DNA from: Opitutales bacterium
GTDB taxonomy: Bacteria > Verrucomicrobiota > Verrucomicrobiia > Opitutales > UBA2995
Assembly (NCBI GenBank): GCA_965204545.1
Contig: CBDBFA010000003.1
Span: 2,658,357 to 2,690,356, forward strand
Reading direction: 5' to 3'
DNA length: 32,000 nt
A program made the translations under genes and the position numbers. Shown here in pieces: positions 1,465 through 24,241 of the stretch; position 1 is the first letter of the stretch; each line of letters begins with the position of its first letter. The notes beneath the pieces were generated by a model, which ran no database searches, was not told the DNA's origin, and worked only from the letters and a program-made list of their open reading frames with translations.

Positions 1465-1478
1465 TTTGCTCTACAGTC

Positions 1479-3607: not shown

Positions 3608-4024
3608 TTAACCACAGAGGACACAGAGAGCACAGAGAGAGGCGCCGGGGGCGCCAATGAGGATTTATAAAGTTGCTGAGATGCTGAGTTGCCGAGTTGC
3701 TGAGATTTCTTGGAATCGTGATCTTGATCAAGATCGTGATCGAAAATTCCCGAGGAATTGTCTCTCGCAAAGATCGCCAAGAAGAAGAGGGAACCACAAA
3801 CCGAGCTTCGCAATGCTACGCAGGTCAAGAAGGTACAAAATGCTCAAAACAAGGAATTAACGGAGGGCGGGTTTTCCAACCCGCCAATTTGTAGGGGCGA
3901 GGCATGCCTCGCCCACATTCCTGCCTTCAACGCCGTTGGCGTTATCATGATCGAGATCACGATGATTTACTTCGTGACCCTTCGTGTCCTTCGTGGATTT
4001 TTCCTTCTTCCTTCTTCCTTTCTT
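3608..4024. repeat. Intergenic mosaic B
   Basis: Modules in order: TTAA+CCACAGAG/GACACAGAG/AGCACAGAG 3608-3640; GGCGCCgggGGCGCC 3641-3655; (AGTTGCTG)x4 3671-3704; GATC block 3714-3748; CTCTCGCAAAGATCGCCAAGAAG 3762-3791; AACGGAGG+hairpin GGCGGG-ttttccaa-CCCGCC+CAATTT 3858-3890; TGTAGGGGCGAGGCATGCCTCGCCCACA 3890-3917; GATC block 3944-3967; TTCGTGNCC x3 3971-3996; TTCCTTC run 4001-4024. Confidence 0.9.
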
Positions 4025-5120
4025 GCCGGGGGATTTCCACCTCGTAGAGTTGGGAATGACCGGTTCGGTTGGAGGTGAATAGCACGCGCTTTCCATCCGG
4101 GGAGATATTGGGGTGGGGATGGGTATGCTGGGGGGCATAGACCTCAACGGGTCCGTCGTCGTAGGGGCAATGATCGGCGTTCCAGTGGTCGCCCGCATTG
4201 GTTGCCTCGGTCAGGCAGAGCGGGACCGGTTTCGACAAACCTTCACCGAGGTGAAACAATAGCAGGCCAAGGTCCGGATTTTTTGTGTCGCTCACCATCC
4301 ATTGGCCGGTTGGATCGACCATGGGGTGCCAGGCGTTGAAAGCGCACACTTTGCGAGCGGCGCCGGTATCGGTATGGATGGCGATTACTCCATGGGGCCA
4401 GTTGGTGGTCATAATCTCCCTGCTTCCCGGTCGCCAGGTTTCGTGCACGATCCATTCTTTTTTTGCCGCGTCCCGTCGGTAGACCAGACGGTTATCGCTT
4501 CCGTCCCGCCGCATGACCCAGATCCGGGAATGATAGGGTCCGGCATAGCGAAGCCAATTGGAATCCTGGGGATGAAATTGGGGATGACCTATGGAATCGC
4601 GTTCGAGAATTATTTGGGAGCGCAAGGTAGCTGTTTCCAGCACTATCATTCTAGCGGTTGTTCCGGTCTTGATGGGGACGGCCCAAAAGCAATCGTCCGG
4701 GCTGAGAGTGGTGGTTCCCATAGCTGCTCCGACCATGCCTTTCTCCCGGATATTCGAGCTTCCGAAGTCGAGTACCTGTTCTTCCTTGAAGGTTTCGGTG
4801 TCCACGCGCCAACCTCCCGGACCGGCGGTAAAGTAGACATGGCGGCCATCCCGGGAGGGGTGGATGGACCATTCGTTGAGGTCCGGTCGGTCGGTCAGTT
4901 GCAGCAGCCGATAGGAATCGGTTGGCAGAAGGTAGAGTTGGGGCGAGCCCGAGCGGTGGCTGACGAGGACGAGGTGTCGCATGTGCCGGTCCCAGGCCGG
5001 GATGTAGTAGAAGGGGTGGTGGTGAATGGACGGGTGGTCGGTCAACTGACGAACCGAGGCCCCCGTAACCGGATCCTGAAACCGACGCATTTCGGATGGA
5101 TACTGCTTCCCTTTGCTCAC
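3957..5120 (-). CDS. Oligogalacturonate-lyase-like (PL22/Ogl-like) beta-propeller protein, cytoplasmic
   Basis: The 507-aa track ORF is over-extended into the upstream gene. I place the start at GTG 5120-5118, which overlaps the upstream TGA (5119-5117) as GTGA. The alternative is ATG 5090. The N-terminus VSKGKQYPSEMRRFQDPVTGASVRQLTD...LYLL...QLTD resembles, from memory, the start of enterobacterial Ogl. TolB/WD40-like repeats follow. The last ~22 codons (PRQERKKEEGKIHEGHEGSRSKSS) are encoded by repeat modules. Confidence 0.6.
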   Translation of the reverse strand: MSKGKQYPSEMRRFQDPVTGASVRQLTDHPSIHHHPFYYIPAWDRHMRHLVLVSHRSGSPQLYLLPTDSYRLLQLTDRPDLNEWSIHPSRDGRHVYFTAGPGGWRVDTETFKEEQVLDFGSSNIREKGMVGAAMGTTTLSPDDCFWAVPIKTGTTARMIVLETATLRSQIILERDSIGHPQFHPQDSNWLRYAGPYHSRIWVMRRDGSDNRLVYRRDAAKKEWIVHETWRPGSREIMTTNWPHGVIAIHTDTGAARKVCAFNAWHPMVDPTGQWMVSDTKNPDLGLLLFHLGEGLSKPVPLCLTEATNAGDHWNADHCPYDDGPVEVYAPQHTHPHPNISPDGKRVLFTSNRTGHSQLYEVEIPRQERKKEEGKIHEGHEGSRSKSS

Positions 5121-6103
5121 TTGCGGGGAAGTTGGAGGATGCGCTCGGCATTGGCGCTGAAAATCTCTTTGGGCAGTCCTCCAGCGGCGGTGAGCGTTTC
5201 TCGAATCCCGGAGAAGGGAAAATCGGTGGCAAACAGGCATTGGGAGGGGCCGAAAAAGGCCAAGCCGGCTTCCATGGCCAAACGGGAACCGAATGTGGCT
5301 GTGTCGGCGTAAAATTTGCCGAAGGCCTGGACCGGCTCGATGGAAAGTTCGGGCCTTGTCTCTCCGGGCCGATCCGGGGAGTGGCGGGGATCCCTTGCAT
5401 CGAATCCATGTTGCAAACGCCCTTCCATCATGGGAATGGCGCCGCCGGCATGGTGGGTGATCACCTTCAGCTCGGGCCATTTATCGAACAGGCCGGCAAA
5501 AACGAGGCGTCCGGCGCAGATACCGGTTTCGTGAGGCCAGCCGAAGGCCCACCAGAGGTCGTATTTGGAAAACTCCTCCCCCGGGTAGTCTCCCGGTGCG
5601 ACTCCCCGGATGGGGTGAAGCCAAACGGGCCGGTCGAGTTGAGCCATGAGCTCGAAGAGGGCCAGAAACTCGGGTCGGTCCAAGGGCAGGCCGTTGACGC
5701 TGGTGTAGAGTTGAACCCCCAAGGCTCCGAGTTGACCGATGGCGTAGCTGGCTTCTTCAAGGGCAGCTTCGGGACAGTTGAGGGGAAGGGATGCGACAAA
5801 ACCCGGAAAATGGTTGGGGTTTTCCGAACTCCACTGCGCCATGGCTTCATTGCCGATTCTGGCCAATTGGGGAGAATTTTCCGCCGTGGTTATCATTTCG
5901 GGTGAGGGGGAGCTGAGGCTCAGTATCTGACGGTAACCGGGGAACTTTTCCATCAGTTCGATTCTCTCCTTCCGGTCGCACATGCCCGTCCTGTCCACGG
6001 CCCGGTCGAACATGGGAAGCGCTCGCTTTTGCACGGCCCGACAGGCCTCGACGTAAGGGGGAGGCAGGCAGTGATTGAAGACGTCGATGCAGGAGTGGGT
6101 CAT
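5117..6103 (-). CDS. Amidohydrolase-2 family (PF04909-like) metal hydrolase, candidate sugar lactonase
   Basis: 328-aa ORF with an ATG at 6103. It starts MTHSCIDVFNHCLPP (H-x-H-like metal site) and has conserved HHAGG and ATDFPF near the C-terminus, as in the ACMSD/LigI/sugar-lactonase group. No signal peptide. Confidence 0.65.
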   Translation of the reverse strand: MTHSCIDVFNHCLPPPYVEACRAVQKRALPMFDRAVDRTGMCDRKERIELMEKFPGYRQILSLSSPSPEMITTAENSPQLARIGNEAMAQWSSENPNHFPGFVASLPLNCPEAALEEASYAIGQLGALGVQLYTSVNGLPLDRPEFLALFELMAQLDRPVWLHPIRGVAPGDYPGEEFSKYDLWWAFGWPHETGICAGRLVFAGLFDKWPELKVITHHAGGAIPMMEGRLQHGFDARDPRHSPDRPGETRPELSIEPVQAFGKFYADTATFGSRLAMEAGLAFFGPSQCLFATDFPFSGIRETLTAAGGLPKEIFSANAERILQLPRK

Positions 6104-6133
6104 GGTAACGCGGCCCGCGGCTGGGGCCCGGAA

Positions 6134-7099
6134 TTACCGGACTACGGGATAATCGATGGCTTTGAGTTGATCCCTGATATCCTGGATGCCGGCAGGGGAG
6201 AGGGGCCGAATCGGTCGCCTGAAATGCGGACTGGGGAAACGCCCCATGAGCCAGCGGGCCACTTTCATTCGTTGGTGCGCGCCGCAGCCCGGTTCTCCGA
6301 AATTATAGATCAGGCGGGCCAGGGGCGCCACCGTTTCGCGGGCTTTGCGGGCTCCTTCCAGGTCGCCATTCAGGGCCGTGTGAACGCAATCGACCATCAG
6401 TTCGGGGGCGAAACCGGCAAAGCCTATAAGGGCCCCATCGGCTCCTTCGAGGAGGGTGGCGAGGAGAAATTCGTCGGCGCAGGTGACTATGGACACGTGG
6501 GGGGCCTCGGCCTTCAGTTGTTCGTAATCGTAGAGCCAACGGGACATGTCCCGGGTGCCCATCTTGATCATGACCACTTCCGGAATCTTCACCATTTCCA
6601 TCATTTCGTCCAAGGTATACCCGGCCTTGGTCCAGGCCGGGTATTGGTGAATAATGATGGGGACCCCCGATCCTTCGGCCACGTCCCTGATGAATCCCAC
6701 CGCCGTTTCGGAACTGCGCCCAAAACGCAACCAATGGTGCGGAGGCATGAGCAGGATGGCCTCGGCCCCGGCATCCCGGGCCGATTTGGCCTGATCGATG
6801 GCTTCGAAGGATCCCTCGGCGGAGACGCCGGTAATGGTTTTTACGGGCCGGTTTTTCACCGCCCCGGCCTTGTCCGCGCTGGTTCGCACCACGGAGGTGA
6901 CGGCGTCTCTCTCATTCGGTCGAAGCGACATGATCTCACCGGTGTGACCGTTGCAGACGACCCCCTCGATGCCATCGACCCCGGCTACTTCCTCGATGTA
7001 GCGGGCCAAGCCTTCCTCGTCGATGGATTCATCCCGGTAAAACGGGCACAGGGTGGCGGGAAAAACCCCTGACCAGGGCTGATCGTTCCAGTTGCTCAT
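6134..7099 (-). CDS. DHDPS/N-acetylneuraminate-lyase family class I aldolase (candidate 2-keto-3-deoxy sugar-acid aldolase/dehydratase)
   Basis: Family motifs are VCNGHTGE, IIIHQYP and VMIKMGTRD (candidate Schiff-base Lys). I prefer ATG 7099 (MSNWNDQPWSGVFPA...). The TTG at 7123 would add MAPLGAPV, which is encoded by the GGCGCC hairpin repeat. Confidence 0.7.
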   Translation of the reverse strand: MSNWNDQPWSGVFPATLCPFYRDESIDEEGLARYIEEVAGVDGIEGVVCNGHTGEIMSLRPNERDAVTSVVRTSADKAGAVKNRPVKTITGVSAEGSFEAIDQAKSARDAGAEAILLMPPHHWLRFGRSSETAVGFIRDVAEGSGVPIIIHQYPAWTKAGYTLDEMMEMVKIPEVVMIKMGTRDMSRWLYDYEQLKAEAPHVSIVTCADEFLLATLLEGADGALIGFAGFAPELMVDCVHTALNGDLEGARKARETVAPLARLIYNFGEPGCGAHQRMKVARWLMGRFPSPHFRRPIRPLSPAGIQDIRDQLKAIDYPVVR

Positions 7100-7105
7100 G
7101 ACGGG

Positions 7106-7322
7106 GGCGCCCAAGGGCGCCAATTAGGAATTAGGAGGAGTGATGGAGTAATGGAGTGTTGGAATGGTGGAATGGTGGAATGGTGGAATGGTGGAATGGT
7201 GGAATGGTGTGATTGGGCTATTGCGGTGCGTCTGAATTCTTCAAGAAAAAATTATGTGCCTTCACGAGAGTCTATTCCTCATTTCTCTCTCCCTCTCTGT
7301 GTCCTCTGTGATCTCTGTGGTT
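7106..7322. repeat. Intergenic mosaic C
   Basis: Modules: GGCGCCcaagGGCGCC 7106-7121; AATTAGGAATTAGGA 7122-7136; GGAGTGATGGAGTAATGGAGTG 7137-7158; (GGAATGGT)x6 7161-7208; reverse CACAGAG array CTCTGTGTCCTCTGTGATCTCTGTGGTT about 7293-7322. Confidence 0.9.
7161..7208. repeat. 8-bp microsatellite (GGAATGGT)x6
   Basis: Six perfect tandem units read directly from the sequence. Confidence 0.95.
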
Positions 7323-7346
7323 TTCTTTCCCCAAATTCCTTTTAAT

Positions 7347-9077
7347 CTAAGTGGCGATCCAGACGAAGCCGGCGATCAGGCTTATCACGCCGATCCAACC
7401 GGCGGTGAAGCCGAGGATGGCGACTTTGGAAGGCATGGGGATTTCCAGCCCGAATGCGGTGGTGAGCATTTTGCGTTGGGCGGGCGATACCCCATCGGGC
7501 AATTGGCATGGGGTGACAATTTCTTCACCCTCGGCGATAGGAGTCCGGGTGAGTTGATAGTAGCGGTCGAGCCGTTCCTCGTCTACCGGGCGGGAGAGAA
7601 GACTGACCACAACTCCGGCAGCGATAGCGCAGACCATGTAAAAAACAATGAGCCAGGGTTCATACATCTCGAGGTTGTCCGGCGGTCCATGGGTGAGGTG
7701 CAGCGCTTCCGCAAAAGGCAGAGTGTACAACCATTCGGCAAAGAAGGTTCTTTCCGCCAGCCACCAAGCCGCGAAGGCGGTCAAGGTGCTGGCCCAAGCC
7801 CCGGCAGGAGTGGCTTTTCTCCAAAGCAAACCCATCCAGAAGGCGATCCCCATCATGGGCAGTATCTTGAGCCATATCATCAGTCCGGCTATGACCCCGG
7901 ACAGCCAGAAGGCGAAAACAACTCCCGCAACCACGATGGCGACCGCTCCGAGGCGACCGACCCAAAGGTAATGCGGAATGCTCTCGTTCTGGCGAAAGGG
8001 TCGATACAGGTTTTCAGTGAAAAGCGCGGCGGCGGATATCATGAAGGAATCACAGGAACTCATGATGCCGGCCAACAGGGATGCGATGAATACCCCCAGG
8101 AGACCGACCGGGAGAAACTGCCGGGCCATATCGCCGTAAACGCTGTCGGGATGGATTGAATCCAGATTTACGCCCTGCTGAATATACAAAGCCAACGCCC
8201 CGATACCGGTCAAACACCAGGCTACCGTGCAGATGCGCTTTATAAAGGTGCCGGTCATGTAGCCGAGGCGTCCTTCCATTTCCGTTTTTCCAGCGGCCGA
8301 ATTCCCCATGGCGCTGGGGAGAGCGACGATGCCGACAATGACCTGGAAGGAAACCATGAGTATCCAAAACAGTCCGATCTCACCGGGCGCGACCAGGGAA
8401 AGCTTCTCAGGATGATCCACAGCCAAGGTAGCTTTGACACCGCTCAGACCTCCCGCCGCGGCCAAGACGTAGGGCAAGAGCATGAAGGAGAAAAGCAGGG
8501 TGAGCACCCCTTGGATAAAATCCGTGACCACTGCGGCGCCCAGCCCCCCGGCCAGACCATAGGTGACGAACAGAACCGAGGTGACGACGATGGCCAGGTT
8601 GGCGTCGATAGCTCCACCGGTGCCGGCATCGATCAAGGCGCCTGTGCCCTTCAACAAGAGGCCGATCTTGGCTATCATGCTGAGGATGCCGACCAGGGCG
8701 AACAGGAAGGATACGCTTCGGTCGTAACGGAGCTCAAATACGTCGGCCGTAGTGGTGGCCCGAAACCTCCGCATGATGGGGGCAATGATCCAGAAAAAGG
8801 GTGTAACCAGGAGCCACAACCACTGGTACCAGATTCCGGAGAGGCCGCTGCGCACCGTGCCCGAGGCCACGGTTACGGCCTGGTCGGATGCGGTGCCGGT
8901 GCCAAAGGCATGCATGATCATCATGACTTTTCCGAAGCGCCGGGGCATGAAGAAATCGGCCGACCGTTTTACCTGCTTGCCGGTATGAACCCCCAGGAGG
9001 GTGATCCCCAGCAGGTAGACTACAATAACCGTGCCATCCAGCCAGTGGATGGCGGCGATGGGGAGGGAAAGGGACAC
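7347..9077 (-). CDS. Sodium:solute symporter family (SSS) transporter
   Basis: 576-aa ORF with a GTG start at 9077. It is a multi-pass hydrophobic protein with an SSS-type N-terminus (DGTVIVVYLLGITLLGVHTGKQVKRSADFFMPRRFG). First gene of the minus-strand operon. Confidence 0.8.
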   Translation of the reverse strand: MSLSLPIAAIHWLDGTVIVVYLLGITLLGVHTGKQVKRSADFFMPRRFGKVMMIMHAFGTGTASDQAVTVASGTVRSGLSGIWYQWLWLLVTPFFWIIAPIMRRFRATTTADVFELRYDRSVSFLFALVGILSMIAKIGLLLKGTGALIDAGTGGAIDANLAIVVTSVLFVTYGLAGGLGAAVVTDFIQGVLTLLFSFMLLPYVLAAAGGLSGVKATLAVDHPEKLSLVAPGEIGLFWILMVSFQVIVGIVALPSAMGNSAAGKTEMEGRLGYMTGTFIKRICTVAWCLTGIGALALYIQQGVNLDSIHPDSVYGDMARQFLPVGLLGVFIASLLAGIMSSCDSFMISAAALFTENLYRPFRQNESIPHYLWVGRLGAVAIVVAGVVFAFWLSGVIAGLMIWLKILPMMGIAFWMGLLWRKATPAGAWASTLTAFAAWWLAERTFFAEWLYTLPFAEALHLTHGPPDNLEMYEPWLIVFYMVCAIAAGVVVSLLSRPVDEERLDRYYQLTRTPIAEGEEIVTPCQLPDGVSPAQRKMLTTAFGLEIPMPSKVAILGFTAGWIGVISLIAGFVWIAT

Positions 9078-9490
9078 TTTGGACGGGTGGTTCGGCTCAG
9101 CTACTCCGTGGTCGGTTGATTCGGGCAGCGATGCAAGTGAAATAAAACACCCTATCCCGGAAAATAAATGAAAAAAGGATTATTGGGCCGCGAATCCTCG
9201 TATGGGGTCATTCCTTGCAATCTTGACGCAGCTTGCTACATCCGAAGGGGTCACTCCTGGATTTTCAACCTGGGGACATGTCAAAAATCAAGGAACTGAC
9301 CCTGACTGACGTGCATAACATATTTCTCTACAACCCCGCCAAACCAGGGCCATATGGGATAAAATCAATATATGACTTGAAATTCGGCGGTGAATTCTAT
9401 CAGGTCGGAGGCGTTGCAAGCGCTGTTTTCTCCCCGGTTTTCTGAGGGCACATCGGTGGGCAATTTAAATGAATCAGGTTAGGGTTCCCA

Positions 9491-11152
9491 GTGGCTCATT
9501 TTTTGGAATACTCCGTGCGGAAAAGACTTCTCATTCTTCTGCTGGCTCTGGTTAGCCCTGTCCATTTGCCAGCCGTGGTGGGACCCCGATCGGAGGCGGT
9601 CGATCCGGACCAATACGGACAGGTCTTTTACGTCGATAGAGGATCCGGAGACGACGTGGTTGGCGATGGTTCGATATCAAAACCCTGGGCCAGCATCATA
9701 CACGCGCTGGAGCATTCCGGCTTTGCCACCTCGGACCATCGGGTGGCGGTGCTCGTTTCCAGGGGTCGCTACCTGCAACCGACCTTCGTCCTGCGCCCCC
9801 ACGTCGACTTGTATGGCGGCTACGCCAGACCCGGAGGCGAACGCAACATCTACGCCCACGCCTCGGTATTGGATGGAAATGGGGACCGCCGGATCGTTTT
9901 TGGGGCCGATCAGGCTCGGCTGGACGGCTTTCATCTGGTAGATGCGCGCGTTCGCGGGAAGGGGGCCGCCCTTCATTGCGACGGCGTTTCTCCGACCATA
10001 ATCAATTGTATCTTCGTCAACAACCGCACCCTGATCCCGGATCCATGGGACCCGCCTCTCCTTCATGAGACCGGCAATGACGGAGGAGCGGTCATGATCC
10101 TGAACGGAGCCAAGCCCGAAATTTCGCACAACTATTTTTTCAACAACTCCACCGAGTGTGGTCGAGGCGGCGCGTTGGCGGTCGATATTGGGGCCGATCC
10201 GATGGTGAAGAACAATGTTTTTGCCAACAACCGGGCCGGCTTGGACGATCCCATGCGCAGTAGCGATGGGGGAGCCGTATCCTGGTTTGACGGGTCGGCC
10301 GGGGAATTTTCCGGCAACGTTATCGTAGCCAATTCCTCCTTGGCAAACAACGACGCGGGCGGCGTTTTCGTGGCGCTGTGGGCCGCGCCGGTCGTTTCAT
10401 CCAATATCTTTGTGGGCAACTACAGCGACGACGACGCGGGCGGGCTCTTTAGCGGAGGGCAGGAACACCGTTACGATGCCCCCTTGGACCCTTATCCGGC
10501 CAAGGATCGATACAACCTCCTGGTGGAGGACAATGTCTTTGTGGGAAACCGCAACTCCGCGGACAACTCTGGAGCCATGCGGATTACCATGGAATCACGG
10601 GCTCATTTTGTCGGGAACGTGGTAGCTGAGAACCACGGCGGCATGTATCTGCAACGCTCCGAGATAATGGCGGAGAACAATACGGTTTGGCAGGATTGGA
10701 AGTTCCTGGAGGACAAGGAATCCCTCGCACCCAGTTATTTTTCGGGAAACGTGCTCAAAGGACCGGTCGGGCCGATCGAAGCTCGGGTGACGTTTGAGGG
10801 AAACATGGTGGAATCATCGGTGAGGGATGGGAATCGTATCCCCATTGCCGATATTTTTCAGGATGATGCTCTCAGTGGGGAAATTCTATTCCTATCCTTC
10901 AATTCTCAAACATACTCGACGGTTCTGAAAACAGCGGAGTCCCTGCCCTCCGATTTGGCCGGCCGTCCCGTGCGCCTGAGTGAAGATCACGAGGATGGCC
11001 AGTGGCGGGTGATCAAGTCCTCCGGCGGTCGCCGGATGGAAGTCTGGGGCGCGGTCCAAACCACTACTGGCGGGGTGAACGCCTACGATGTTATCCGCAC
11101 TTTTACTTTGAAAGAGGGCGCGCCCAAAGGTGTGGGCGCTGGATCCCTTTAA
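9491..11152 (+). CDS. Secreted right-handed parallel beta-helix repeat protein (candidate polysaccharide lyase/hydrolase)
   Basis: 553 aa with a GTG start. The signal-like segment is RKRLLILLLALVSPVHLPA. Repeated beta-helix rungs are present: INCIFVNNR, HNYFFNNS, NNVFANNRAG, GNVIVANSSLANNDAGG, SNIFVGNYSDDDAGG, DNVFVGNRNSADNSG, GNVVAENHGG. Confidence 0.7.
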   Translation: MAHFLEYSVRKRLLILLLALVSPVHLPAVVGPRSEAVDPDQYGQVFYVDRGSGDDVVGDGSISKPWASIIHALEHSGFATSDHRVAVLVSRGRYLQPTFVLRPHVDLYGGYARPGGERNIYAHASVLDGNGDRRIVFGADQARLDGFHLVDARVRGKGAALHCDGVSPTIINCIFVNNRTLIPDPWDPPLLHETGNDGGAVMILNGAKPEISHNYFFNNSTECGRGGALAVDIGADPMVKNNVFANNRAGLDDPMRSSDGGAVSWFDGSAGEFSGNVIVANSSLANNDAGGVFVALWAAPVVSSNIFVGNYSDDDAGGLFSGGQEHRYDAPLDPYPAKDRYNLLVEDNVFVGNRNSADNSGAMRITMESRAHFVGNVVAENHGGMYLQRSEIMAENNTVWQDWKFLEDKESLAPSYFSGNVLKGPVGPIEARVTFEGNMVESSVRDGNRIPIADIFQDDALSGEILFLSFNSQTYSTVLKTAESLPSDLAGRPVRLSEDHEDGQWRVIKSSGGRRMEVWGAVQTTTGGVNAYDVIRTFTLKEGAPKGVGAGSL

Positions 11153-11171
11153 TCGACCAACCCCGTCTGTC

Positions 11172-12161
11172 ATGATGTCATGCGTGTTTCGAGTTCCCTG
11201 TTTTCTGGCCGCTTTCGCGGCGGCTTCCTGTATTGGGGCGGAGTACTCCGGTCCCAAGCGCCTCAACAAAGCCATTGAGTTGTTGGAGGCGGGCCAACCC
11301 ATTTACTATACCTACGGCGCTCGTGGAAGCGACGCACCGCGCACCGGAGAAGAAATGTTCGAGCTGGGGAAATCCCTGTCCAAGACCTGGGCCGATCTGA
11401 TCATGTACGACATGGAGCACTCCGCCCTGGATTTCAATCTCCTGCGGTCCTTCATGTCCGGGTTGCTGGAGGGAGGACCAACTCCGAGCGGACACCGTAC
11501 ACCGGCCGTGGTCGTGACCTTGCCATTGATGGGCCTGGACCCCCAATCGGTGAAGATCAACGGCTGGATGGTTCAGCAGGCCCTCTCGGCCGGTATCCAC
11601 GGTGTACATTTGTGCCGGGCCCGCGACCCCGAGGCGGTGCGGGAGTTTGTCCGGCAAGCCCGCTACCCCGTGCATCGACAGGGACTCGATCTCAAAGGGG
11701 GGCTCAAGGAAGGTGTCCGCGGTATGGGCAGCGATGGTTTTGCCAGAAAGATCTGGGGGCTTACCCGCGAGGAATACTTTACGGTGGCCGATACCTGGCC
11801 CTTGAACCCCCGGGGGGAAATCATGCTGGGAGTGAAGATCGAGGATCCTCATGCCCTGCGCAACTGCGAGGCGACCGCGGCGGTGGCGGGACTTGCCTTT
11901 GTCGAGTCGGGCCCGCGCGACATGGGTTTGTCTTACGGATTCCTGGAGGGAAGGGCCGATCCCCCTTTGTCTCCCGAGGTCTTGGCGGCCAATGAGCGCG
12001 TTCTGGCCGCGGCGGACGTGGCCGGTGTGGCTTTTCTCAATAATGTTCTTCCCGACAACGTAATTTCCGGTATCGAGGGAGGAATCGATATAGCGGCCGG
12101 GGGCAGCCGGGAGGCGGCGGAGATCGGTCGCAAACACACGGGGCGGGTGATGCCCTGGTAA
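11172..12161 (+). CDS. HpcH/HpaI-family aldolase with an N-terminal signal/lipoprotein-like sequence
   Basis: Family pattern: LIMYDMEHSALD, ARYP...GVRGMG, MLGVKIEDPHAL, FVESGPRDMGLSYG. The start is placed at ATG 11172 (MMSCVFRVPCFLAAFAAASC-), after the upstream stop at 11152. Confidence 0.65.
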   Translation: MMSCVFRVPCFLAAFAAASCIGAEYSGPKRLNKAIELLEAGQPIYYTYGARGSDAPRTGEEMFELGKSLSKTWADLIMYDMEHSALDFNLLRSFMSGLLEGGPTPSGHRTPAVVVTLPLMGLDPQSVKINGWMVQQALSAGIHGVHLCRARDPEAVREFVRQARYPVHRQGLDLKGGLKEGVRGMGSDGFARKIWGLTREEYFTVADTWPLNPRGEIMLGVKIEDPHALRNCEATAAVAGLAFVESGPRDMGLSYGFLEGRADPPLSPEVLAANERVLAAADVAGVAFLNNVLPDNVISGIEGGIDIAAGGSREAAEIGRKHTGRVMPW

Positions 12162-12180
12162 GGAAATCGGGGGTTCTGTC

Positions 12181-13764
12181 ATGGAGTTGGCTTTTATCGA
12201 TTGGCTGGTAGTTTTCATCTACCTGGCGAGTATAGCCAGTATCGGTCTTTATGTCTCCCGTGGACAGCGGACCGTACGCAAATTTTTCACGGCGGACCGT
12301 TCCATCCCGTCCTGGGCGGTGGGGTTCACCCTGATGGCTACCATCGTGGGGAGCGGCACCTTTGTGGGACACCCCGGCACCGCCTACGGCAAAGGGATGA
12401 TACTGTTCCTCCCGCACATGTTGCTGCCGTTGGTGCTCCTGATAGTCGCGGTGTGGATCGTGCCCTTTTACCGGCGGGTGGTGCAGATGAGCGCCTACGA
12501 ATTTGTCGGCCGCCGGTTCGGACTGGGAAGTCGCATCTACACCTCGCTGGGATTTCTGGCCGACCGCACCTTCGACCTCGGAGTGACGCTGGTGACGACG
12601 GGCATAGCCCTGTATGTTTTTACTGGTTGGGACCCCATGCATGTCATTTTAGGCACCGGTCTGTTCACCTTGATTTACACCATGATCGGGGGCATCACGG
12701 CGGTGGCCTGGACCAACGTGGCTCAGGGAATCATTTTGTCGGGCGGAGCCGCGCTCATTCTGATCCGGGTCCTGTTTGCTCCGGAGATCGGGGATCCGGC
12801 GGGCATCATCAAGTCTTCCTGGGAAGCGGGCCGTTACAGTTTCGGTTCCTGGGAGTTTTCCTGGCGCATGCTCTTCGACCGGGAGACCACCACCATCTGG
12901 ATATTCTTCTTTGCATACTTCATTCAGTGGAGCCGCCGCTATATCACCGACCAGCACATCGTGCAGAACTACCTCATCGGCGAGTCGGACAAGGCGGCCA
13001 GCCGCGGCGCCTTGATGGGGGCGTTTTGCTGCCTGCCCATATTCTTCGCCTTCATGTTCATCGGGGGCAGTTTCTATGGTTTCTTCGATCTGATGCCCGG
13101 TGATGCCGGACCCGTCAAGGCGGATGAAGTCATGCCGTATTTTCTTTCCCACTACATTCCGGCGGGGGTATTGGGATTGATATTGGCCGCAATCCTGGCC
13201 GCGGCCATGTCCTCGGTGAGCGCCGATCTCAACAGTATCGCAACGGTCCTGACCACCGACTACTTCGGAAATATCTTTCCCAAAGTGAAAGAGAGAACCC
13301 GGCTCATATGCGGGAGGCTCTTTGTAATGATCGGGGGCTTATCAGCCTCCACCATTGCGATACTGCTGCTTCCCAAGGATGGATCGGTCCCCCTAATGGA
13401 ACGGGCCATAACCATTGCCACCATCATATCGGGCGGTACCCTGGGATTATTCTGTCTCGGTTTTCTGACCCGGCGCGCCACCCGCACAGGGGTCTATTAC
13501 GGAATTGCAGCATGTGTGATCTTTACCTCCTGGGCCCTCTTGTCCAAACCCGACGGGGAGGGCCAACGCATCCTGGATTTCGGGTTCAATTGGGAAATGA
13601 ATTCCATGCTCATCGGCCTGTTCGGTCACTTCATACTCTTTGGCGTGGGTTACCTGACAAGCCGCCTCTTCGGAGGTTACCGGCCGGCCTATGTGGAGGA
13701 ATTGACCATTCATCAAGTGAGAAAGCTGAGAAGAGATGAGGCGGAAAAGGCGCAAAAAACATAA
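12181..13764 (+). CDS. Sodium:solute symporter family (SSS) transporter
   Basis: 527 aa with an ATG start. The N-terminus is SSS-like (IDWLVVFIYLASIASIGLYVSRGQRTVRKFFTADRSIP), and about 13 hydrophobic segments follow. Confidence 0.8.
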   Translation: MELAFIDWLVVFIYLASIASIGLYVSRGQRTVRKFFTADRSIPSWAVGFTLMATIVGSGTFVGHPGTAYGKGMILFLPHMLLPLVLLIVAVWIVPFYRRVVQMSAYEFVGRRFGLGSRIYTSLGFLADRTFDLGVTLVTTGIALYVFTGWDPMHVILGTGLFTLIYTMIGGITAVAWTNVAQGIILSGGAALILIRVLFAPEIGDPAGIIKSSWEAGRYSFGSWEFSWRMLFDRETTTIWIFFFAYFIQWSRRYITDQHIVQNYLIGESDKAASRGALMGAFCCLPIFFAFMFIGGSFYGFFDLMPGDAGPVKADEVMPYFLSHYIPAGVLGLILAAILAAAMSSVSADLNSIATVLTTDYFGNIFPKVKERTRLICGRLFVMIGGLSASTIAILLLPKDGSVPLMERAITIATIISGGTLGLFCLGFLTRRATRTGVYYGIAACVIFTSWALLSKPDGEGQRILDFGFNWEMNSMLIGLFGHFILFGVGYLTSRLFGGYRPAYVEELTIHQVRKLRRDEAEKAQKT

Positions 13765-13772
13765 AAAGGAGT

Positions 13773-13809
13773 CTCTCGCAAAGCCGCCAAGAAGCAAAGG
13801 ACGCAAAGA
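13773..13809 (+). repeat. TIR-L of GxxExxY cassette (CTCTCGCAAAG/CGCCAAG box)
   Basis: See the cassette entry. The same box family occurs at 1043, 1432(rc), 3762, 22024(rc, degenerate), 22182(rc), 24102, 24294 and 25757. Confidence 0.9.
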
Positions 13810-14193
13810 ATGGATGAGAATTCAATTGGTAAGGTAGTTGTGGATGCGACTATTGCAGTGCATCGTGAGGTTGGTCCGGGATTGTTGGAGACCGTTTACG
13901 AATTGGTTCTGCTGGACGAACTGCAAAACCGGGGGTTGGTTGCTAAGCGCCAAGTACCCATCCCTATCCACATCCGTGGAATTCAATTCGATGAAGCATT
14001 CCGCGCTGACATCATAGTCGAAAACAAGGTCATTTTAGAATTGAAGTGCGTCGAGAAGACCAGCCCTGCACATAAGAAGCAACTTCTGACCTATTTAAAG
14101 CTCAGCGGAATGAAACTAGGGTATCTATTAAATTTTGCAGAAGCGATGATGAAGGACGGAATTACTCGGACCGTAAATGGGCTGCCTGAATAA
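13810..14193 (+). CDS. GxxExxY protein (PD-(D/E)XK nuclease-fold, TIGR04256-type)
   Basis: 127 aa. The name-giving motif G-LL-E-TV-Y occurs in GPGLLETVYE, and a PD-(D/E)XK-like RADIIVENKVILELK core follows. The gene is visibly AT-richer than its neighbours (by eye). Confidence 0.85.
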   Translation: MDENSIGKVVVDATIAVHREVGPGLLETVYELVLLDELQNRGLVAKRQVPIPIHIRGIQFDEAFRADIIVENKVILELKCVEKTSPAHKKQLLTYLKLSGMKLGYLLNFAEAMMKDGITRTVNGLPE

Positions 14194-14198
14194 TAGAA

Positions 14199-14235
14199 TC
14201 TTTGCGAACTTTGCCTCTTGGCGGCTTGGCGAGAG
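14199..14235 (-). repeat. TIR-R of GxxExxY cassette
   Basis: Its outer 19 nt (reverse complement CTCTCGCCAAGCCGCCAAG) are identical to 1043-1061 and to the reverse complement of 1446-1464. Confidence 0.9.
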
Positions 14236-14253
14236 GATATTCAAGAAGTGGAA

Positions 14254-15654
14254 ATGGCCACAAGAAGTACACAAAGCAAGGGACGGATTGGAATGAGGGC
14301 TAGGCATCCCAACATATTGCTGGTCATCGTCGATGATCTGTCGTCCTGCCAATTGGGTTGTTACGGTAGCGGGTACTACGAGACTCCGCATCTCGATGCT
14401 TTTGCCGGCAAGGGAATCCGCTTCGACCGGGCCTACGCCACGGGGCCGGTTTGCTCTCCGGCCCGGGCCGGGATTTACACGGGGCGCCATCCGGCCCGTC
14501 TGCATTTGACCAACTACATCCCCGGCACCGTTCCCGCCAATCCTCGTTTGATTACCCCGGATTGGCAAAAAGGACTGCCGGTTCACGAGCAAACCCTGGG
14601 AGACGTGTTCAAGGCTCATGGATACGAAACCGCTCACATTGGGAAATGGCACCTGGGGCAGGATTACCATTACCGGAGGCACCGGCCCATGGATCCGGAA
14701 TCCCATGGATTCGACGAAGTTTTTGTCACGCTAAAGCCGAAGCCCCACTTCGATCCCGAGGACGATGCCCACAATGTGCAGAAACTGACGGACCGGACCA
14801 TAGAGTTTCTCCGGCGGCCCCGCGACAAGCCTTTCCTGTGTGTGTTGGCTCACAACACCATTCACCGTCCGGAGATGGCTCCGTCGACTTATCTGGAACG
14901 CTTTGAAAACAAGGTTCCCCGGGAAAATGAGTGGATTCATCCAACCCAGGCGGCCATGGTGGCGGAGTTGGACGATGCGTTTGGTCGGTTGATGGAGGCT
15001 CTGGACCAGTCGGGTGGGCGTGAGGACACCATTGTCGTTTTTACCTCCGATCACGGCGCCTATGCCGACAGCGACGTTCGCAAACCCTGGCGAGGGGCCA
15101 AATCCGACCTCTATGAGGGCGGGCTTCGCGTGCCCTTCCTGATGCGGTGGCCCGGGGGCTTGGACGGGGGGCGCGTCTTTGAGGGAGCTGTTTCCCTGGC
15201 CGACCTGCTTCCCACATTGGCGGCCATGACGGGGGCGAGTTTACCGGAAGTAGAGCTGGATGGGATGAACCTGCTGCCCGTTATTTCCGGGGAAGGTGAA
15301 TTTGATGAGCCGAGAACTTTCTTCTGGCACTACCCGCACTATCATCACACCGGGCTCGGGCCTTGTGGTTCGGCCCTTCGCGGAAGACACAAGTTGATCG
15401 AATGGTTTGAAGGGAGTATGGGCAATTCAATCGAGGTTCCAGCTTTTGAACTCTTCGACCTGGAGGAGGATCCCTGGGAGGAAAACGACTTGGCCGGGGA
15501 ATATCCGGAGTTGGTGGAGACCCTGTCCGCCGCATTGCGGGACTGGCGCCGCCGGATCGGGGCTCAGGAAATGGCCCCGAATCCCCAATTTAATGAAGCG
15601 GCTGGCGGGCAGGCGTCCGAACCTCCGCCTGGCGACAGAATCCGAGCAATTTGA
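14254..15654 (+). CDS. Cys-type (formylglycine) sulfatase, no recognisable signal peptide
   Basis: Motifs: NILLVIVDDLSS and the C-x-P-x-R motif in GPVCSPARAGIYTGRHP; later VFTSDHG. The start is placed at ATG 14254 (MATRSTQSKG...); ATG 14293 is the alternative. The TTG at 14218 lies inside TIR-R. Confidence 0.8.
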   Translation: MATRSTQSKGRIGMRARHPNILLVIVDDLSSCQLGCYGSGYYETPHLDAFAGKGIRFDRAYATGPVCSPARAGIYTGRHPARLHLTNYIPGTVPANPRLITPDWQKGLPVHEQTLGDVFKAHGYETAHIGKWHLGQDYHYRRHRPMDPESHGFDEVFVTLKPKPHFDPEDDAHNVQKLTDRTIEFLRRPRDKPFLCVLAHNTIHRPEMAPSTYLERFENKVPRENEWIHPTQAAMVAELDDAFGRLMEALDQSGGREDTIVVFTSDHGAYADSDVRKPWRGAKSDLYEGGLRVPFLMRWPGGLDGGRVFEGAVSLADLLPTLAAMTGASLPEVELDGMNLLPVISGEGEFDEPRTFFWHYPHYHHTGLGPCGSALRGRHKLIEWFEGSMGNSIEVPAFELFDLEEDPWEENDLAGEYPELVETLSAALRDWRRRIGAQEMAPNPQFNEAAGGQASEPPPGDRIRAI

Positions 15655-19243: not shown

Positions 19244-19306
19244 GCACAAAGGCACAAAGGCACAAAGGCACAAAGGCACAAAGGCACAAAGGCACAAAGG
19301 CACAAA
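19243..19306 (+). repeat. 8-bp microsatellite (GGCACAAA)x8
   Basis: Eight perfect units. The first G is the last base of the TAG stop (19241-19243) of paralog 1. The array abuts the GTG of the four-helix-bundle remnant. Confidence 0.95.
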
Positions 19307-19360
19307 GTGAGCGGTGTTAGAGCATATCAAGATTTGATCGTTTGGCGAGAGTCCATTCCA
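19307..19360 (+). pseudogene. Truncated N-terminal remnant of a four-helix-bundle (23S rRNA IVS-protein family, TIGR02436-like) gene
   Basis: GTG AGC GGT GTT AGA GCA TAT CAA GAT TTG ATC GTT TGG CGA GAG translates to VSGVRAYQDLIVWRES. This matches the family's characteristic N-terminal Y(R/Q)DL(I/L)VWQK motif. No helical body follows. It is about 85% identical over ~52 bp to 24242-24292 (hand count). Confidence 0.55.
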
Positions 19361-19430: not shown

Positions 19431-21941
19431 ATGAAGCATCATTTATTTAAAGTTTATGGGATCGCTTTGGGCCTGATTCATGGGGCAATTTGTTTTGTAT
19501 CCGCGGCGGAGACGGTGGCCTTGTGGCTTTTCGACGAGCCGGAGTGGCTGTATCCGAGCCACACTGTCGACTCCAGCGCCGGACTGGATGCGCCCATGGT
19601 CCTGGGGCTGGGGGGAACCTTGACTGCAGGTAAGTGGGGCCGCGCTTTGTCGACCGTTCCCCATCCCCCGGTAGAGATTCCCGAGACGGGTGAGGCCACC
19701 GCCTCTCTCACGCCATTGCCCATACCACCGGGTCGAACTCAGGTTCCTCTCACCTGGCACAACGCCGACTTTGCCGCGCTGATGACGGGGGGGGAACGCC
19801 ACCTGCGCAAACAGGTAGGTTTTGTCAATCCTACCGAGACCGATCTGAACCTGGGGGATTTCAATTGGACGGTGGAGTTTTGGCTGAAGGGGAATCCAAT
19901 CCGCCAGGGAGAGGGAGTCGTCTTCGAAATCGGGACGGGACCGAGAGGGGAGAACGACACCTATACCCGACTGACGGTCGATACAACTGAGGGCAGCTTT
20001 GGATTCCTAAATGCCTCATCCGGAAACGAGGTTTCCTTGGGGGATTCAACCAAGGCATTCCAGGACGGGCAGTGGCATCATTTCGTCCTGACGTTTGATT
20101 CCAGCCGGGATGTTCTGACCCTATTCTCCGATGGCGAGCGAGTGGATCGTAAGAAAATCGAACTGAAGCGACTGCCAAGCGGCGACGAATCTTACATGAG
20201 CGTAGGGCGAAATGGGTTCTGGGGGGATCCATTGCCGGGCATTTTGGACGAGTTGCGCTTTTCCAGGGGATTGGTTTACGAAGATGGATTCCAACCGCCG
20301 GGAAGCTTTGCTCCTTCCGTTCCCGAAGTTTCCCTGATGAAGGGACCGTCCCTTCGCTTCGGACCGGATTCTCCAAAATCCGGCAGGGTGGATCTCGGTG
20401 GATCAAAGCACGTTTTCTGGGACGATTCCCTCTTTGAATCCAGCCGGGGAATCACCTTCAATACCCATCAGCCCAAATACATAACCCGGGTGGTTGAAGG
20501 ATTACTGGGACAGGTCCGCAAGCACCTGACCGTTATTGAGGATGAGCAGGGAATAATCCGCATCTACCATGGGGTGGCGGACGACTACCTGGGCATTCGC
20601 ATTTCCCATGATGGAGTGAACTTTGTAGCTCCGGACACCGGTTACCATTGGAAGGGCGACAAGAATATCGTCATTCCCGAAGCGGCGCCACTGGGACGTC
20701 CCATTATCGATCCGAATGGACCGCCCGAGCACCGGTGGAAGTATGTCAGCGGCCTGGAAGGCCGGGGCGTTTACCTCTACACCTCCCCGGACGGTTGGAA
20801 ATGGCAGCGCCAGCGCACTGCGGTTCTACCTTTCCGTTCCGGCTCCCAATCCAGTTTGTTCTACGACGATCAGCGGCAATTGTATGTGGGTTATCACCGC
20901 ACCGGACATCCCATGACCCCGGGAGGGGGAACGAGCCGGCAGTTCGTCCTTTCCGAAACGGCCGATATCTACTCCCCATGGCCGGTCGATCCTCTTACCC
21001 AGAAGGAAGCACTCGAGATCGCGCAAACGCGACCGCTTCGATTGCCCATTCCCTGGTGGATGGACAACGGACCCCTTACGCCGGGCGACTTCAGCGTGGA
21101 AATGCCAACTGTATTCGCTCCGGACCTTTCAGTCGATCCCGGGGGGAGCGGGATCTATGTTCCCAAGGGCATGAAGTACCCTTGGGCCGAGGATGCTTAC
21201 ATCTCTTTTCCGGCCATGTATTATGATTACGAAGAGCCACATCAGCCGTTGAACCGGCGCATTCTTTATCACCCATCCTATGAGAAAGGTTCGGGAACCA
21301 TGGAATCGCATGTGGCGATAAGCCGCGACGGAGTCAAATGGAAGCGGTTCATGCGGCCGGCCTACATACCGATGGATCGCTATCAGGACCGCGACATCCA
21401 TCAGATTTACATGTCCGAGGGAATGATTCGGCGCGGCGATGAAATCTGGCAGTACTTCTACGGGCAGGAGGAGTATCATTCCCCGGCCGTCCGCAACAAG
21501 GCCGGCAACGGAATTTATCGGGCGGTGCAGCGTCTGGATGGTTTTGTCTCGGCCGACACTCCTTACGACCAGGAAGTAACCGTGGTGACCCGTCCTCTAA
21601 CCTTTGATGGGAACCGGCTGGAGCTGAATATCGATACCCGCGCCCTCGGGTATTGCCTGGTTGGAATCCTGGATGAAGAAGGAAAGACCATTCCCGGATA
21701 TGAGGCCGAGAACTGCATCTGGATCAACGGCAACTTTATCCGGCATGAGGTGGAATGGTTGAACCCTGAGGCCGACCTCCGCGGGCTGATCAGGTTGAGG
21801 GCCAATCAAATGCGGCATTCCACCCTCAGCCTCGAGGGAATAACCAAGTCCGACTTGGGACACCTTGCCGGAAAAACCATTCGCCTGCAGTTCAAGATGC
21901 GTGGAGCCAGCCTCTACGCCATGCAGTTTGTGGAAGATTAA
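19431..21941 (+). CDS. Secreted LamG-like + Asp-box beta-propeller + beta-sandwich protein (paralog 2)
   Basis: 836 aa, collinear with 16838-19243. Shared blocks: AETVALWLFDE, WTVEFWL, GEGVVFEIGTGPRGEND, DELRFS, IIDPNGPPEHRWK, TSPDGWKWQR, YDDQRQLY, PWWMDNGPL, KYPWAEDAY, SRDGVKWKR, QRLDGFVS, LYAMQFVED. It carries an extra ~25-aa insertion near the C-terminus. Confidence 0.6.
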   Translation: MKHHLFKVYGIALGLIHGAICFVSAAETVALWLFDEPEWLYPSHTVDSSAGLDAPMVLGLGGTLTAGKWGRALSTVPHPPVEIPETGEATASLTPLPIPPGRTQVPLTWHNADFAALMTGGERHLRKQVGFVNPTETDLNLGDFNWTVEFWLKGNPIRQGEGVVFEIGTGPRGENDTYTRLTVDTTEGSFGFLNASSGNEVSLGDSTKAFQDGQWHHFVLTFDSSRDVLTLFSDGERVDRKKIELKRLPSGDESYMSVGRNGFWGDPLPGILDELRFSRGLVYEDGFQPPGSFAPSVPEVSLMKGPSLRFGPDSPKSGRVDLGGSKHVFWDDSLFESSRGITFNTHQPKYITRVVEGLLGQVRKHLTVIEDEQGIIRIYHGVADDYLGIRISHDGVNFVAPDTGYHWKGDKNIVIPEAAPLGRPIIDPNGPPEHRWKYVSGLEGRGVYLYTSPDGWKWQRQRTAVLPFRSGSQSSLFYDDQRQLYVGYHRTGHPMTPGGGTSRQFVLSETADIYSPWPVDPLTQKEALEIAQTRPLRLPIPWWMDNGPLTPGDFSVEMPTVFAPDLSVDPGGSGIYVPKGMKYPWAEDAYISFPAMYYDYEEPHQPLNRRILYHPSYEKGSGTMESHVAISRDGVKWKRFMRPAYIPMDRYQDRDIHQIYMSEGMIRRGDEIWQYFYGQEEYHSPAVRNKAGNGIYRAVQRLDGFVSADTPYDQEVTVVTRPLTFDGNRLELNIDTRALGYCLVGILDEEGKTIPGYEAENCIWINGNFIRHEVEWLNPEADLRGLIRLRANQMRHSTLSLEGITKSDLGHLAGKTIRLQFKMRGASLYAMQFVED

Positions 21942-22313
21942 CCACAGAGAGCACAGAGGACACAGAGTTGGGGAAGGGAAGGAGATAAACCACGGATTAC
22001 ACGGATAAACACGGATATGGCGCCTCTTGGCGTTCTTGTAGGTCTCTGCGAGAGCTAATCCAAAGACTCTCCAATCGACTTGGCTCAATTTGGTTTTTTC
22101 AGGCGCGGCAAGGATGCCGCTGCCCCACCGTTTACGTTTCGAAATGGTAGGGCTATCGCGTCCCCGCGATGCCGTAACCTACTTTGCGAGAGGCTTTTCT
22201 TAATTCGATCACGATCATGATCATGATCACTATAGACTTCAGCACCTTTATCCTTTAGTCTTTATCCTTCAGCCTTTCTAACTTCTCTGTGTCCTCGGTG
22301 TTTTCTGTGGTTA
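21940..22313. repeat. Intergenic mosaic H
   Basis: Modules: (T)AA+CCACAGAGAGCACAGAGGACACAGAG 21940-21967; CACGGAT array 21988-22016; half GGCGCC 22019-22024; degenerate reverse box 22024-22054; hairpin GCGGCA-agga-TGCCGC 22105-22120; GTAGG..ATCGCG-tccc-CGCGAT..CCTAC 22147-22182; reverse CTTTGCGAGAG 22182-22192; GATC block 22202-22230; CCTTCAGCC-type run 22236-22278; reverse CACAGAG array 22283-22313. Confidence 0.9.
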
Positions 22314-24073: not shown

Positions 24074-24193
24074 ATGTGATCGTGATAGAATTAAGAAAAG
24101 CCTCTCGCAAAGCTCGCCAAGAACGCTGAGAAAAGGCACAGAGGCGCCGGGGGCGCCAATTAAGAATTAGGAATTAGGAATGGGGAATGAAAA

Positions 24194-24241
24194 GGCACAA
24201 AGGCACAAAGGCACAAAGGCACAAAGGCACAAAGGCACAAA
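24194..24241 (+). repeat. 8-bp microsatellite (GGCACAAA)x6
   Basis: Six perfect units that directly abut GTG 24242. Confidence 0.95.

Follow-up and report, generated by a model that had tools for sequence, protein, structure and literature searches.

A GxxExxY nuclease gene enclosed by palindromic word arrays in an Opitutales operon: one of a many-phyla family of small, possibly selfish elements

A small nuclease-like gene that is enclosed by inverted repeats and lodged between two co-oriented host genes raises the question of whether it belongs to the operon or is a piece of mobile DNA. Such a gene lies in a sugar operon within a stretch of 32,000 nt from an Opitutales bacterium (Verrucomicrobiota; assembly GCA_965204545.1, contig CBDBFA010000003.1, positions 2,658,357 to 2,690,356 of the forward strand), which as a whole is called the window below. 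Positions 13773-14235 of the window form a 463-bp unit made of a GxxExxY gene and two flanking arms, and an initial annotation based on the sequence had proposed that this may be a minimal self-mobilising or homing cassette. We lean, with modest confidence, towards a reading in which the unit belongs to a family of small palindromic elements that recurs in many phyla, and is a selfish nuclease cassette that has no promoter and is accompanied by repeat-only derivatives. The family seems to represent a minimal type of selfish DNA that has not been described.

Layout of the cassette and its arrival between symporter and sulfatase

A repeat search recovered the arms at 13773-13809 and 14199-14235, 37 nt each, 389 nt apart and paired at 33 of 37 positions (89%); the coordinates and the 33 matches agree with the initial annotation. 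It had also placed the start ATG (13810) directly after the left arm, with no gap, and the right arm 5 nt beyond the stop codon (TAA, 14191-14193), and both are seen in the sequence. The cassette is AT-richer than its surroundings, as had been noted (GC content 0.45-0.47 against 0.55-0.63 in the flanks). The features of the locus are as follows.

12181-13764, + strand: host SSF sodium:solute symporter, upstream and co-oriented (open reading frame, ORF, and profile match)
13748-13772, + strand: probable outward extension of the repeat, containing the last symporter codons and their stop TAA (13762-13764); its exact border is approximate
13773-13809, + strand: left arm, CTCT + CGCAAAG-C-CGCCAAG + AAGCAAAGGACGCAAAGA, an L-type (left-type) array of 8-nt words that abuts the ATG
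13810-14193, + strand: GxxExxY / PDDEXK_3 gene, 127 aa, predicted minimal PD-(D/E)XK nuclease fold (TIGR04256 and PF13366 profiles)
14199-14235, + strand: right arm, an R-type (right-type) word array, TCTTTGCGAACTTTGCCT CTTGGCG-G-CTTGGCG AGAG
14258-14285, + strand: degenerate second L-type word stretch (CCACAAGAAGTACACAAAGCAAGG), the right-hand copy of direct repeat D1
14293-15654, + strand: host sulfatase with corrected start, downstream and co-oriented (profile match and orthologue starts)

The proposed position of the cassette between a co-oriented symporter ending at 13764 and a sulfatase stands, with one correction: the sulfatase had been thought to begin at 14254, and its start is most likely 14293. 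The ATG at 14293 is the start called in contig L201, which is 99% identical, and it aligns with the starts of the orthologues in L203, L204 and L205. No promoter-like or terminator-like site was found in 13500-14500.

The arms contain a 19-mer box, CTCTCGCCAAGCCGCCAAG, which with up to three mismatches occurs four times in the window and not once in 100 dinucleotide-preserving shuffles. The orthologous symporter-sulfatase junction was recovered from five other assemblies (L001, L201, L203, L204 and L205), and these show that the ancestral junction lacked the cassette, which was inserted later, as the initial annotation had supposed. L201 carries the full cassette, with a GxxExxY protein 99% identical to that of the window. 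The symporter and sulfatase genes are separated by only 8 nt in L205, 11 nt in L204 and 19 nt in L203, with no trace of the box in any of these spacers; the sulfatases of L204 and L205 are 70% identical to that of the window, and the sulfatase of L203, a metagenome-assembled genome (MAG) from Opitutae, is 89% identical. Because these three sites are clean and empty, the box is not ancestral to this junction.

The Opitutales MAG L001 shows an intermediate arrangement. Its left junction and left box are the same as in the window and are followed by approximately 30 nt of degenerate words and then by the sulfatase start, with neither the GxxExxY gene nor the right arm. The window thus equals L001 plus 473 nt, and the difference, whose borders we read by eye from the junction comparison, is bounded by the direct repeat D1 of arm-type words (13788-13821 and 14261-14294, 71% identical). 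Since the borders lie in a direct repeat, the real layout is left arm, gene, right arm, 26 nt, degenerate left-type array, sulfatase. The simplest readings of L001 are that a deletion left it behind, or that it is the reciprocal product when two left-type arrays recombine; we read it as a remnant because its left junction is identical by descent and the more distant relatives have no box. The initial annotation had allowed that related genomes might carry the box at this junction regardless of the gene, which would speak against its proposal: to the letter L001 does carry it, whereas L203, L204 and L205 lack the box altogether.

The insertion seems to reach further to the left than the arm. 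The approximately 20 nt outside the box ('aaaaaacataaagaggagt') are conserved in other Opitutales copies and form the last symporter codons and stop in the window, and the 'aaaaaacat/gtaaagaggagt' stretch before the box is also present in the Opitutales copies L006, L088 and L066. As the repeat extends past 13773 in these other copies, the left border of the inserted DNA should lie near 13750 rather than at 13773. The C-terminal tail of the window symporter is unlike that of the empty-site orthologue in L203, and the symporter stop and last codons (13748-13764) appear to have been supplied by the inserted repeat.

The GxxExxY protein and its word arrays across phyla

The assignment of the protein to TIGR04256 and to a PD-(D/E)XK fold was upheld. 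It scores 134.2 bits against TIGR04256 (cut-off 35) and 133.4 bits against PF13366 (cut-off 22), covers profile positions 4-115 of 116, and shares E27 of the GxxExxY motif, D67, E77 and K79 with all of seven cross-phylum homologues. An AlphaFold2 (AF2) model (pLDDT 90.5) has the secondary-structure order H-H-E-E-E-H-E, and its best fold neighbours in PDB are all PD-(D/E)XK enzymes: Cas4 SSO0001, LHK-Exo and lambda exonuclease, Hjc, and tRNA splicing endonucleases. Profiles, residues and model together point to membership of the PD-(D/E)XK superfamily, with catalysis predicted. The fold matches are all weak (template modelling score, TM, 0.33-0.53), which suggests a minimal PD-(D/E)XK core with no close solved relative; a PDB sequence search with the window protein gave no match, and an exact look-up of this protein found nothing on record. 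Compared with an 86%-identical copy in L202, located between an epimerase and a TRAP transporter, the ratio of nonsynonymous to synonymous substitution rates (dN/dS) is 0.15, which indicates that the protein is maintained by purifying selection.

GxxExxY genes are described as multi-copy within a genome. The family comprises 16,882 clusters at 50% identity (E <= 1e-3). A superfamily survey from 2012 listed the function of GxxExxY/PDDEXK_3 proteins as unknown (PMC3424549). Among defence and phage libraries, PADLOC returned weak matches to Cas4 and to a reverse transcriptase (RT)-associated PDDEXK model (E 1e-4 to 7e-3), and PHROGs a single weak match. These matches are only faint, and a role in a defence system was set aside.

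In a scan of one genome per species, the box CTCTCGCMAAGCCGCCAAG was found at at least 120 loci from more than ten phyla, including Opitutales, Pirellulales and other Planctomycetota, Gammaproteobacteria, Acidobacteriota, Nitrospirota, Bacteroidota, Desulfobacterota, Chloroflexota and Myxococcota. An exact copy of the 19-mer box also occurs in locus L009 (DATKVG010000137.1), a contig of a bin labelled Bathyarchaeia (archaea), which could be a binning contamination or a real cross-domain case. Inward of the box follow further words of the form nnCGC[A/C]AAG. Short arrays of 8-nt words, C[G/A]C-N-[A/G]AG plus one spacer base, make up the arms, and their outer end reads (T)CTC[A/G/T]C or TTCAC. 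Lineages differ in their words (CGCAAAG, CGCCAAG, CGCAGAG, CACAAAG, CGCGGAG and CACGAAG).

Among the matches listed, for 68 of 127 box occurrences an inverted partner lies no more than 2.5 kb away. The majority of the pairs form short gene-less hairpins of 62-160 nt, and a smaller class of 440-570 nt encloses a full GxxExxY gene in either orientation. Between the two lies a graded series of internally deleted copies that connects gene-bearing with gene-less forms: copies of 317-364 nt with internally deleted genes in Thiodiazotropha, the Opitutales copy L066, which still has the 3' end of the window's GxxExxY gene, and copies of 125-150 nt in which, judged by eye, a remnant of the 3' end of the gene seems to be kept. 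In a jackhmmer search of the box loci GxxExxY was the only recurring protein, with 13 ORFs or fragments next to boxes. The box, which the initial annotation had read as part of the terminal repeats of the cassette, is not private to it. The window itself contains a second convergent pair (1043-1061 and 1446-1464) that has no GxxExxY gene, and 16 word arrays in all.

With a generic pattern of at least two tandem C[GA]CN[AG]AG words, the 1.21 Mb of fetched loci contain 604 word arrays, compared with 12 after shuffling, and the loop lengths of array pairs are bimodal (below 100 nt and 350-450 nt). In 34 aligned arm pairs the share of paired cells is 90.4%, compared with 79.3% in shuffles, and changes on both sides of a pair number 80 against 27, a value that none of 500 shuffles reached. 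The fourth base of the word (columns 8/35 and 16/27) is unpaired in 13-14 of these 34 elements while its neighbours co-vary, and the A/G mismatch of the window at 13780 falls there; this mismatch may be a recognition feature rather than decay. Arrays near a gene resemble distant arrays on the same contig in their word types (cosine 0.66, against 0.38 with contigs permuted), and similarity of arm words rises with protein identity (Spearman 0.38).

The association was also examined from the protein side, using 80 GxxExxY loci that were picked from a metagenome scan by protein alignment regardless of their flanks. Flanking inverted repeats scoring at least 30 and above all 50 shuffles were present for 47 of the 79 testable genes, and their arms were always word arrays; only 5 of the 80 genes have no word array within 150 nt on either side, and roughly 90% carry arrays of this word type within that distance. 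In 35 of 80 the gene lies inside one hairpin, with a left-type array upstream and a right-type array downstream, and in at least 10 it is framed by two short hairpins that are each complete, some of these cases being tandem gene-hairpin arrays. In both architectures mutually complementary arms enclose the gene. Conversely, 41 of 55 ORFs of 70-300 aa with arrays on both sides encode GxxExxY proteins; the sole other credible ORF within a left-right pair encodes a GIY-YIG nuclease in L166, and the remaining cargo candidates are spurious ORFs. The association of gene and arms is general and specific, and the expectation of the initial annotation that GxxExxY genes would be preferentially bracketed by inverted boxes of this kind holds in this sample. 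Where a gene has an upstream neighbour, it is mostly co-oriented with it (42 of 52).

Several loci of this sample are of interest in themselves. The GIY-YIG ORF of L166 (2457-2995, 141 aa; PF01541, 22.8 bits against a gathering threshold of 22.6) lies directly downstream of a GxxExxY gene, and represents a second small nuclease, unrelated to the first, that is carried within such arms. Tandem GxxExxY genes with word hairpins of approximately 100 nt between them are found in L139, L136, L140 and L137, the last in the order hairpin-hairpin-gene-hairpin-hairpin. Some cluster representatives (P0241, P0243, P0244 and others) are 260-295 aa long, contain two matched stretches and look like fused tandem copies.

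The tandem gene-hairpin arrays of these four loci recall integrons, and the 473-nt difference between the window and L001, being bounded by direct arm-type repeats, fits the excision or integration of a circle. The hairpin could accordingly be a site comparable to attC, with a recombinase encoded elsewhere that moves circles of gene plus hairpin. We consider this very improbable: the window ORFs include no integrase or other recombinase, the arms have by eye no attC-type core (RYYYAAC/GTTRRRY), the cassettes are scattered singly in operons with no single platform, their cargo is essentially one gene family, and most genes lie inside a hairpin and not beside one.

Three complete records with the same layout were found in a plasmid and chromid collection. 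In Sphingomonas parapaucimobilis YK209 the order is fabD, TTCACGCGAAGGCGCGAGGACGCGA, gene, TCGCGTCTTCGCGGCTTCGCGTGAA, fabG; in Bacteroides finegoldii it is radA, TTCACCACAGAGGACGCAGAGGACACGGAG, gene, CTCTGTGACCTCTGTGTCCTCTGTGGTGAA, FAD-dependent protein; and in Bernardetia the gene lies between ade and mannose-1-phosphate guanylyltransferase, with CACAGAG words on its flanks. All three cassettes are co-oriented with their neighbours, and their arms of 25-30 nt match at 86-92%. In S. paeninsulae fabD and fabG are 32 nt apart with no array between them, which provides an independent naive empty site. As the empty site has no arms in both polymorphic cases, the arriving unit is arms plus gene, and not a gene homing into a pre-existing hairpin. 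Carriage on classical vectors looks unlikely, as matching records number 8 of 72,556 among plasmids, mostly megaplasmids or chromids, and none in a phage collection.

Expression, copying and the case for a selfish element

The absence of a promoter-like or terminator-like site in and around the cassette, the co-orientation with upstream genes and the fold of the cassette RNA, in which the arms form a 37-bp closing stem in both the minimum-free-energy and the centroid structure (z = -4.6), make read-through expression and an RNA stem plausible. The same observations, together with a start codon that abuts the arm, would be expected if the arms acted in RNA, with the stem of approximately 37 bp looping out the cassette and either being processed by RNase III or masking the ribosome-binding site; harm to the operon would be limited and nuclease expression controlled, similar to an intervening sequence of 23S rRNA. 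If selection acted on an RNA stem, however, G:U mismatches would be expected to outnumber A:C mismatches on the sense strand, and in 39 gene-bearing stems they number 25 and 36, respectively. The arms also occur solo and in gene-less hairpins, in either polarity relative to genes, which, like the mismatch counts, points to DNA as the level of the main constraint. Co-orientation of approximately 81% is near the general background for neighbouring bacterial genes, and Rfam covariance models gave no match up to E = 1 in 900-14400 of the window. An action of the arms in RNA is improbable as the main explanation; the main constraint on them probably acts on DNA, and RNA effects may be a side benefit.

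Intervening sequences of 23S rRNA carry a small multi-copy ORF (the PF05635 four-helix bundle) within a long stem in a transcribed region, and were considered as a lead for this reason. Universal 16S/23S words are absent from all of approximately 208 loci, on which ground the lead was rejected, and the window copy lies between protein-coding genes. The protein family is a different one, and the cassette arms also occur without any ORF.

Evidence for multiplication comes from individual genomes. At least eight copies in a single Thiodiazotropha MAG have approximately 45 nt in common to the left of the boxes, and several also at least 110 nt to the right. Two loci of this MAG on different contigs, L029 and L077, are 96.6% identical over 587 nt and contain the same truncated gene, which shows that non-autonomous copies have multiplied. 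In one Bacteroidetes genome a unit of 131-134 nt around a 71-nt word hairpin is present at at least four sites with 91-98% identity.

Two contigs of one Solibacteraceae MAG share a 2.2-kb segment that includes a GxxExxY cassette (L014 2075-4278 and L107 1074-3276, 99.96% identical). A duplication or mobile unit of larger size could account for this, as could redundancy in the assembly, and since the identical copies lie inside the 2.2-kb duplication they are uninformative on the cassette itself.

Taken together, the gene lies nearly always in a word-array palindrome, gene-less copies are in excess, and units come and go at operon junctions, which leads to the testable hypothesis of a minimal, nuclease-only selfish element. 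Across the family the GxxExxY PD-(D/E)XK nuclease of approximately 125 aa is the sole recurrent protein cargo, and its promoterless gene, which sits in the short spacers within host operons and mostly has their orientation, would be read through from the host promoter. The nuclease would recognise the word arrays and make a break, and host repair or recombination would copy the unit, and gene-less derivatives in trans, to new sites. In its role this would resemble REP/RAYT or homing endonucleases, as a selfish system that relies on a different enzyme. For this sequence of recognition, cutting and copying by the host we see about an even chance, or slightly less. The wider proposal, in which a hitherto unrecognised class of elements is mobilised by GxxExxY proteins that cut palindromic arrays so that host repair copies the units into operon spacers, is tentative, and we would sooner expect it to fail than to hold.

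A number of observations weigh against these proposals. No target-site duplication is visible at five inspected elements, and the window ORFs include neither an integrase or other recombinase nor a transposase of a known class (DDE, HUH, serine or tyrosine), which argues against easy mobility; to our knowledge, a PD-(D/E)XK nuclease can cut but is not known for strand transfer on its own. The link between protein and arms is an association seen in sequences. The borders of the 473-nt difference lie within arm words and not at the outer arm ends, and genes between two complete hairpins misfit a simple transposon with terminal inverted repeats. The covariation of the arms could stem from a shared word type (concerted evolution) instead of selection for pairing, and the two arms frequently disagree at word position 4 (A/C). 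The repeated unit exceeds the arms in several genomes. Finally, we looked for one identical protein at several sites, and P0055, the most widely sampled identical protein (20 contigs), is confined to a single stable locus.

Some of these points would also follow if the word arrays were a REP-like host repeat, moved by another factor or by errors of replication or recombination, and the cassette were not self-mobilising. GxxExxY genes would then accumulate in or next to arrays, or would be domesticated host genes that service the repeats. The large excess of gene-less over gene-bearing arrays agrees with this, as do arrays that are solo, in mosaics or in long tandem runs (for example (CACAAAGG)x8 at 19245-19307), the genes that lie between two complete hairpins, the repeat units that exceed the arms and the single locus of P0055. 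A mere host repeat does not readily account for GxxExxY being essentially the sole protein inside left-right pairs, for an arm consensus that is conserved across phyla with differing host factors and tracks protein similarity, or for the two naive empty sites without any array, which indicate that arms and gene arrived together or nearly so. We regard a host repeat with passenger genes as rather unlikely, and continue to favour a selfish cassette.

Comparison with known systems and further arrays in the window

The closest parallel in architecture is that between repetitive extragenic palindromic sequences and their associated transposases (REP/RAYT, with REPtrons and REPINs), which the initial annotation had suggested and which fits: an enzyme gene is flanked by its cognate short palindromic repeats in inverted orientation, and many gene-less copies lie elsewhere in intergenic spacers as singlets, hairpin doublets and clusters, without target-site duplications. 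The enzymes are different, as the cassette encodes a 127-aa protein of PD-(D/E)XK fold and REP/RAYT an HUH/Y1 transposase of the IS200/IS605 type. The repeats of the cassette, being arrays of 8-nt words, have CTC.C ends, with CTCTC or TTCAC at the start of the arms, and lack a GTAG head; the pair of gene and repeat is kept across more than ten phyla, and the genes lie in operon spacers and are described as multi-copy within a genome.

Correia/NEMIS elements of Neisseria, which are miniature inverted-repeat transposable elements (MITEs), are likewise palindromic units of 60-160 nt next to genes, are co-transcribed and may form long stems. They are confined to a single genus, carry TA target duplications and lack a known autonomous partner, whereas the word-array elements have a conserved protein-coding partner, no duplication seen and no wobble signature at the RNA level. 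In relation to transposons and MITEs with terminal inverted repeats in general, such repeats are present (33 of 37 positions in the window; 25-30 nt and 86-92% in the cultured genomes), but a target-site duplication and a transposase of known class are both missing, the only ORF of the cassette being the PD-(D/E)XK protein.

Free-standing homing endonuclease genes, for which we considered the PD-(D/E)XK enzyme I-Ssp6803I and the phage GIY-YIG Seg and HNH Mob enzymes, share with the cassette a small nuclease gene, presence or absence at orthologous sites (here the window against L203-L205, and fabD-fabG in Sphingomonas) and no other mobility gene. The GIY-YIG gene that occupies the same arms in L166 adds to this likeness. 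Both naive empty sites lack arms, which differs from simple homing into a pre-existing allele, and the cassettes are chromosomal, absent from the phage collection and bracketed by repeats, with gene-less copies that proliferate. Cas4 and lambda-exonuclease-type nucleases are the best structural and profile neighbours (4ic1, E 4e-4; PADLOC Cas4, E 5e-3), but TM values are only 0.45-0.53, the window protein is approximately 70 residues shorter and there is no CRISPR context.

We found no paper on this architecture, though curated TIGRFAM text or subscription journals could hold one; GxxExxY, PDDEXK_3, PF13366 and TIGR04256 have incidental mentions only, and the strings of the arm words were in no paper found. 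If GxxExxY proteins do mobilise these elements, a family of more than 16,000 protein clusters would gain a function, and much of the short palindromic repeat content between genes in Verrucomicrobiota, Planctomycetota, Acidobacteriota, Bacteroidota, Nitrospirota and Pseudomonadota would be explained. The elements sit inside core operons such as fabD-fabG, and cultured carriers (Bacteroides finegoldii, Sphingomonas parapaucimobilis YK209 and Planctomycetales ZRK34) make experiments feasible.

The arms also matter for annotation, as they yield spurious ORF extensions (calls of 169-211 aa) and can supply host stop codons, as at the end of the symporter. In the Sphingomonas parapaucimobilis locus L206 (1495-1923) no stop codon of the annotated GxxExxY ORF precedes the right arm; the frame runs on through the arm to the ribosome-binding region of fabG, giving 142 aa, and many database entries of 140-210 aa are similar read-throughs of an arm.

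The 16 word arrays of the window include three further array pairs and runs of (CACAAAGG)n. The three pairs, none of which is assigned to a strand, are as follows.

1043-1464: second convergent pair of the identical 19-mer box (boxes 1043-1061 and 1446-1464), with 384 nt between and no GxxExxY ORF
3612-3997: word-array pair on either side of a mosaic intergenic repeat, CACAGAG words on the left and CTTCGTG on the right, with an inner CGCAAAG/CGCCAAG array at 3766-3781
21941-22312: word-array pair on either side of a mosaic intergenic repeat, CACAGAG / CTCTGTG, starting right after a stop codon

The first pair is located between two convergent genes, and hairpins nested in one another form a mosaic in its interior (1185-1216, for instance, pairs with 1403-1434 at 84%); comparable mosaics occur in the Opitutales loci L006, L046 and L066. 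The other two mosaics have arms of other word variants (CACAGAG and CACGAAG). The tandem (CACAAAGG) runs comprise eight copies in 19245-19352 and six copies in 24196-24290, and each is followed by a conserved module of approximately 45 nt, 'tgagcgg..ttagagcatatc.a.atttgat.gtttggc'.

An ATPase gene with AAA_14 and DUF4143 domains (24478-25680, - strand) is located between two direct left-type arrays (24106-24130 and 25761-25785), which read ctctCGCAAAGctCGCyAAGaaCGCTrAG. A nuclease-like fold has been proposed for DUF4143, and this gene may be another repeat-associated gene.

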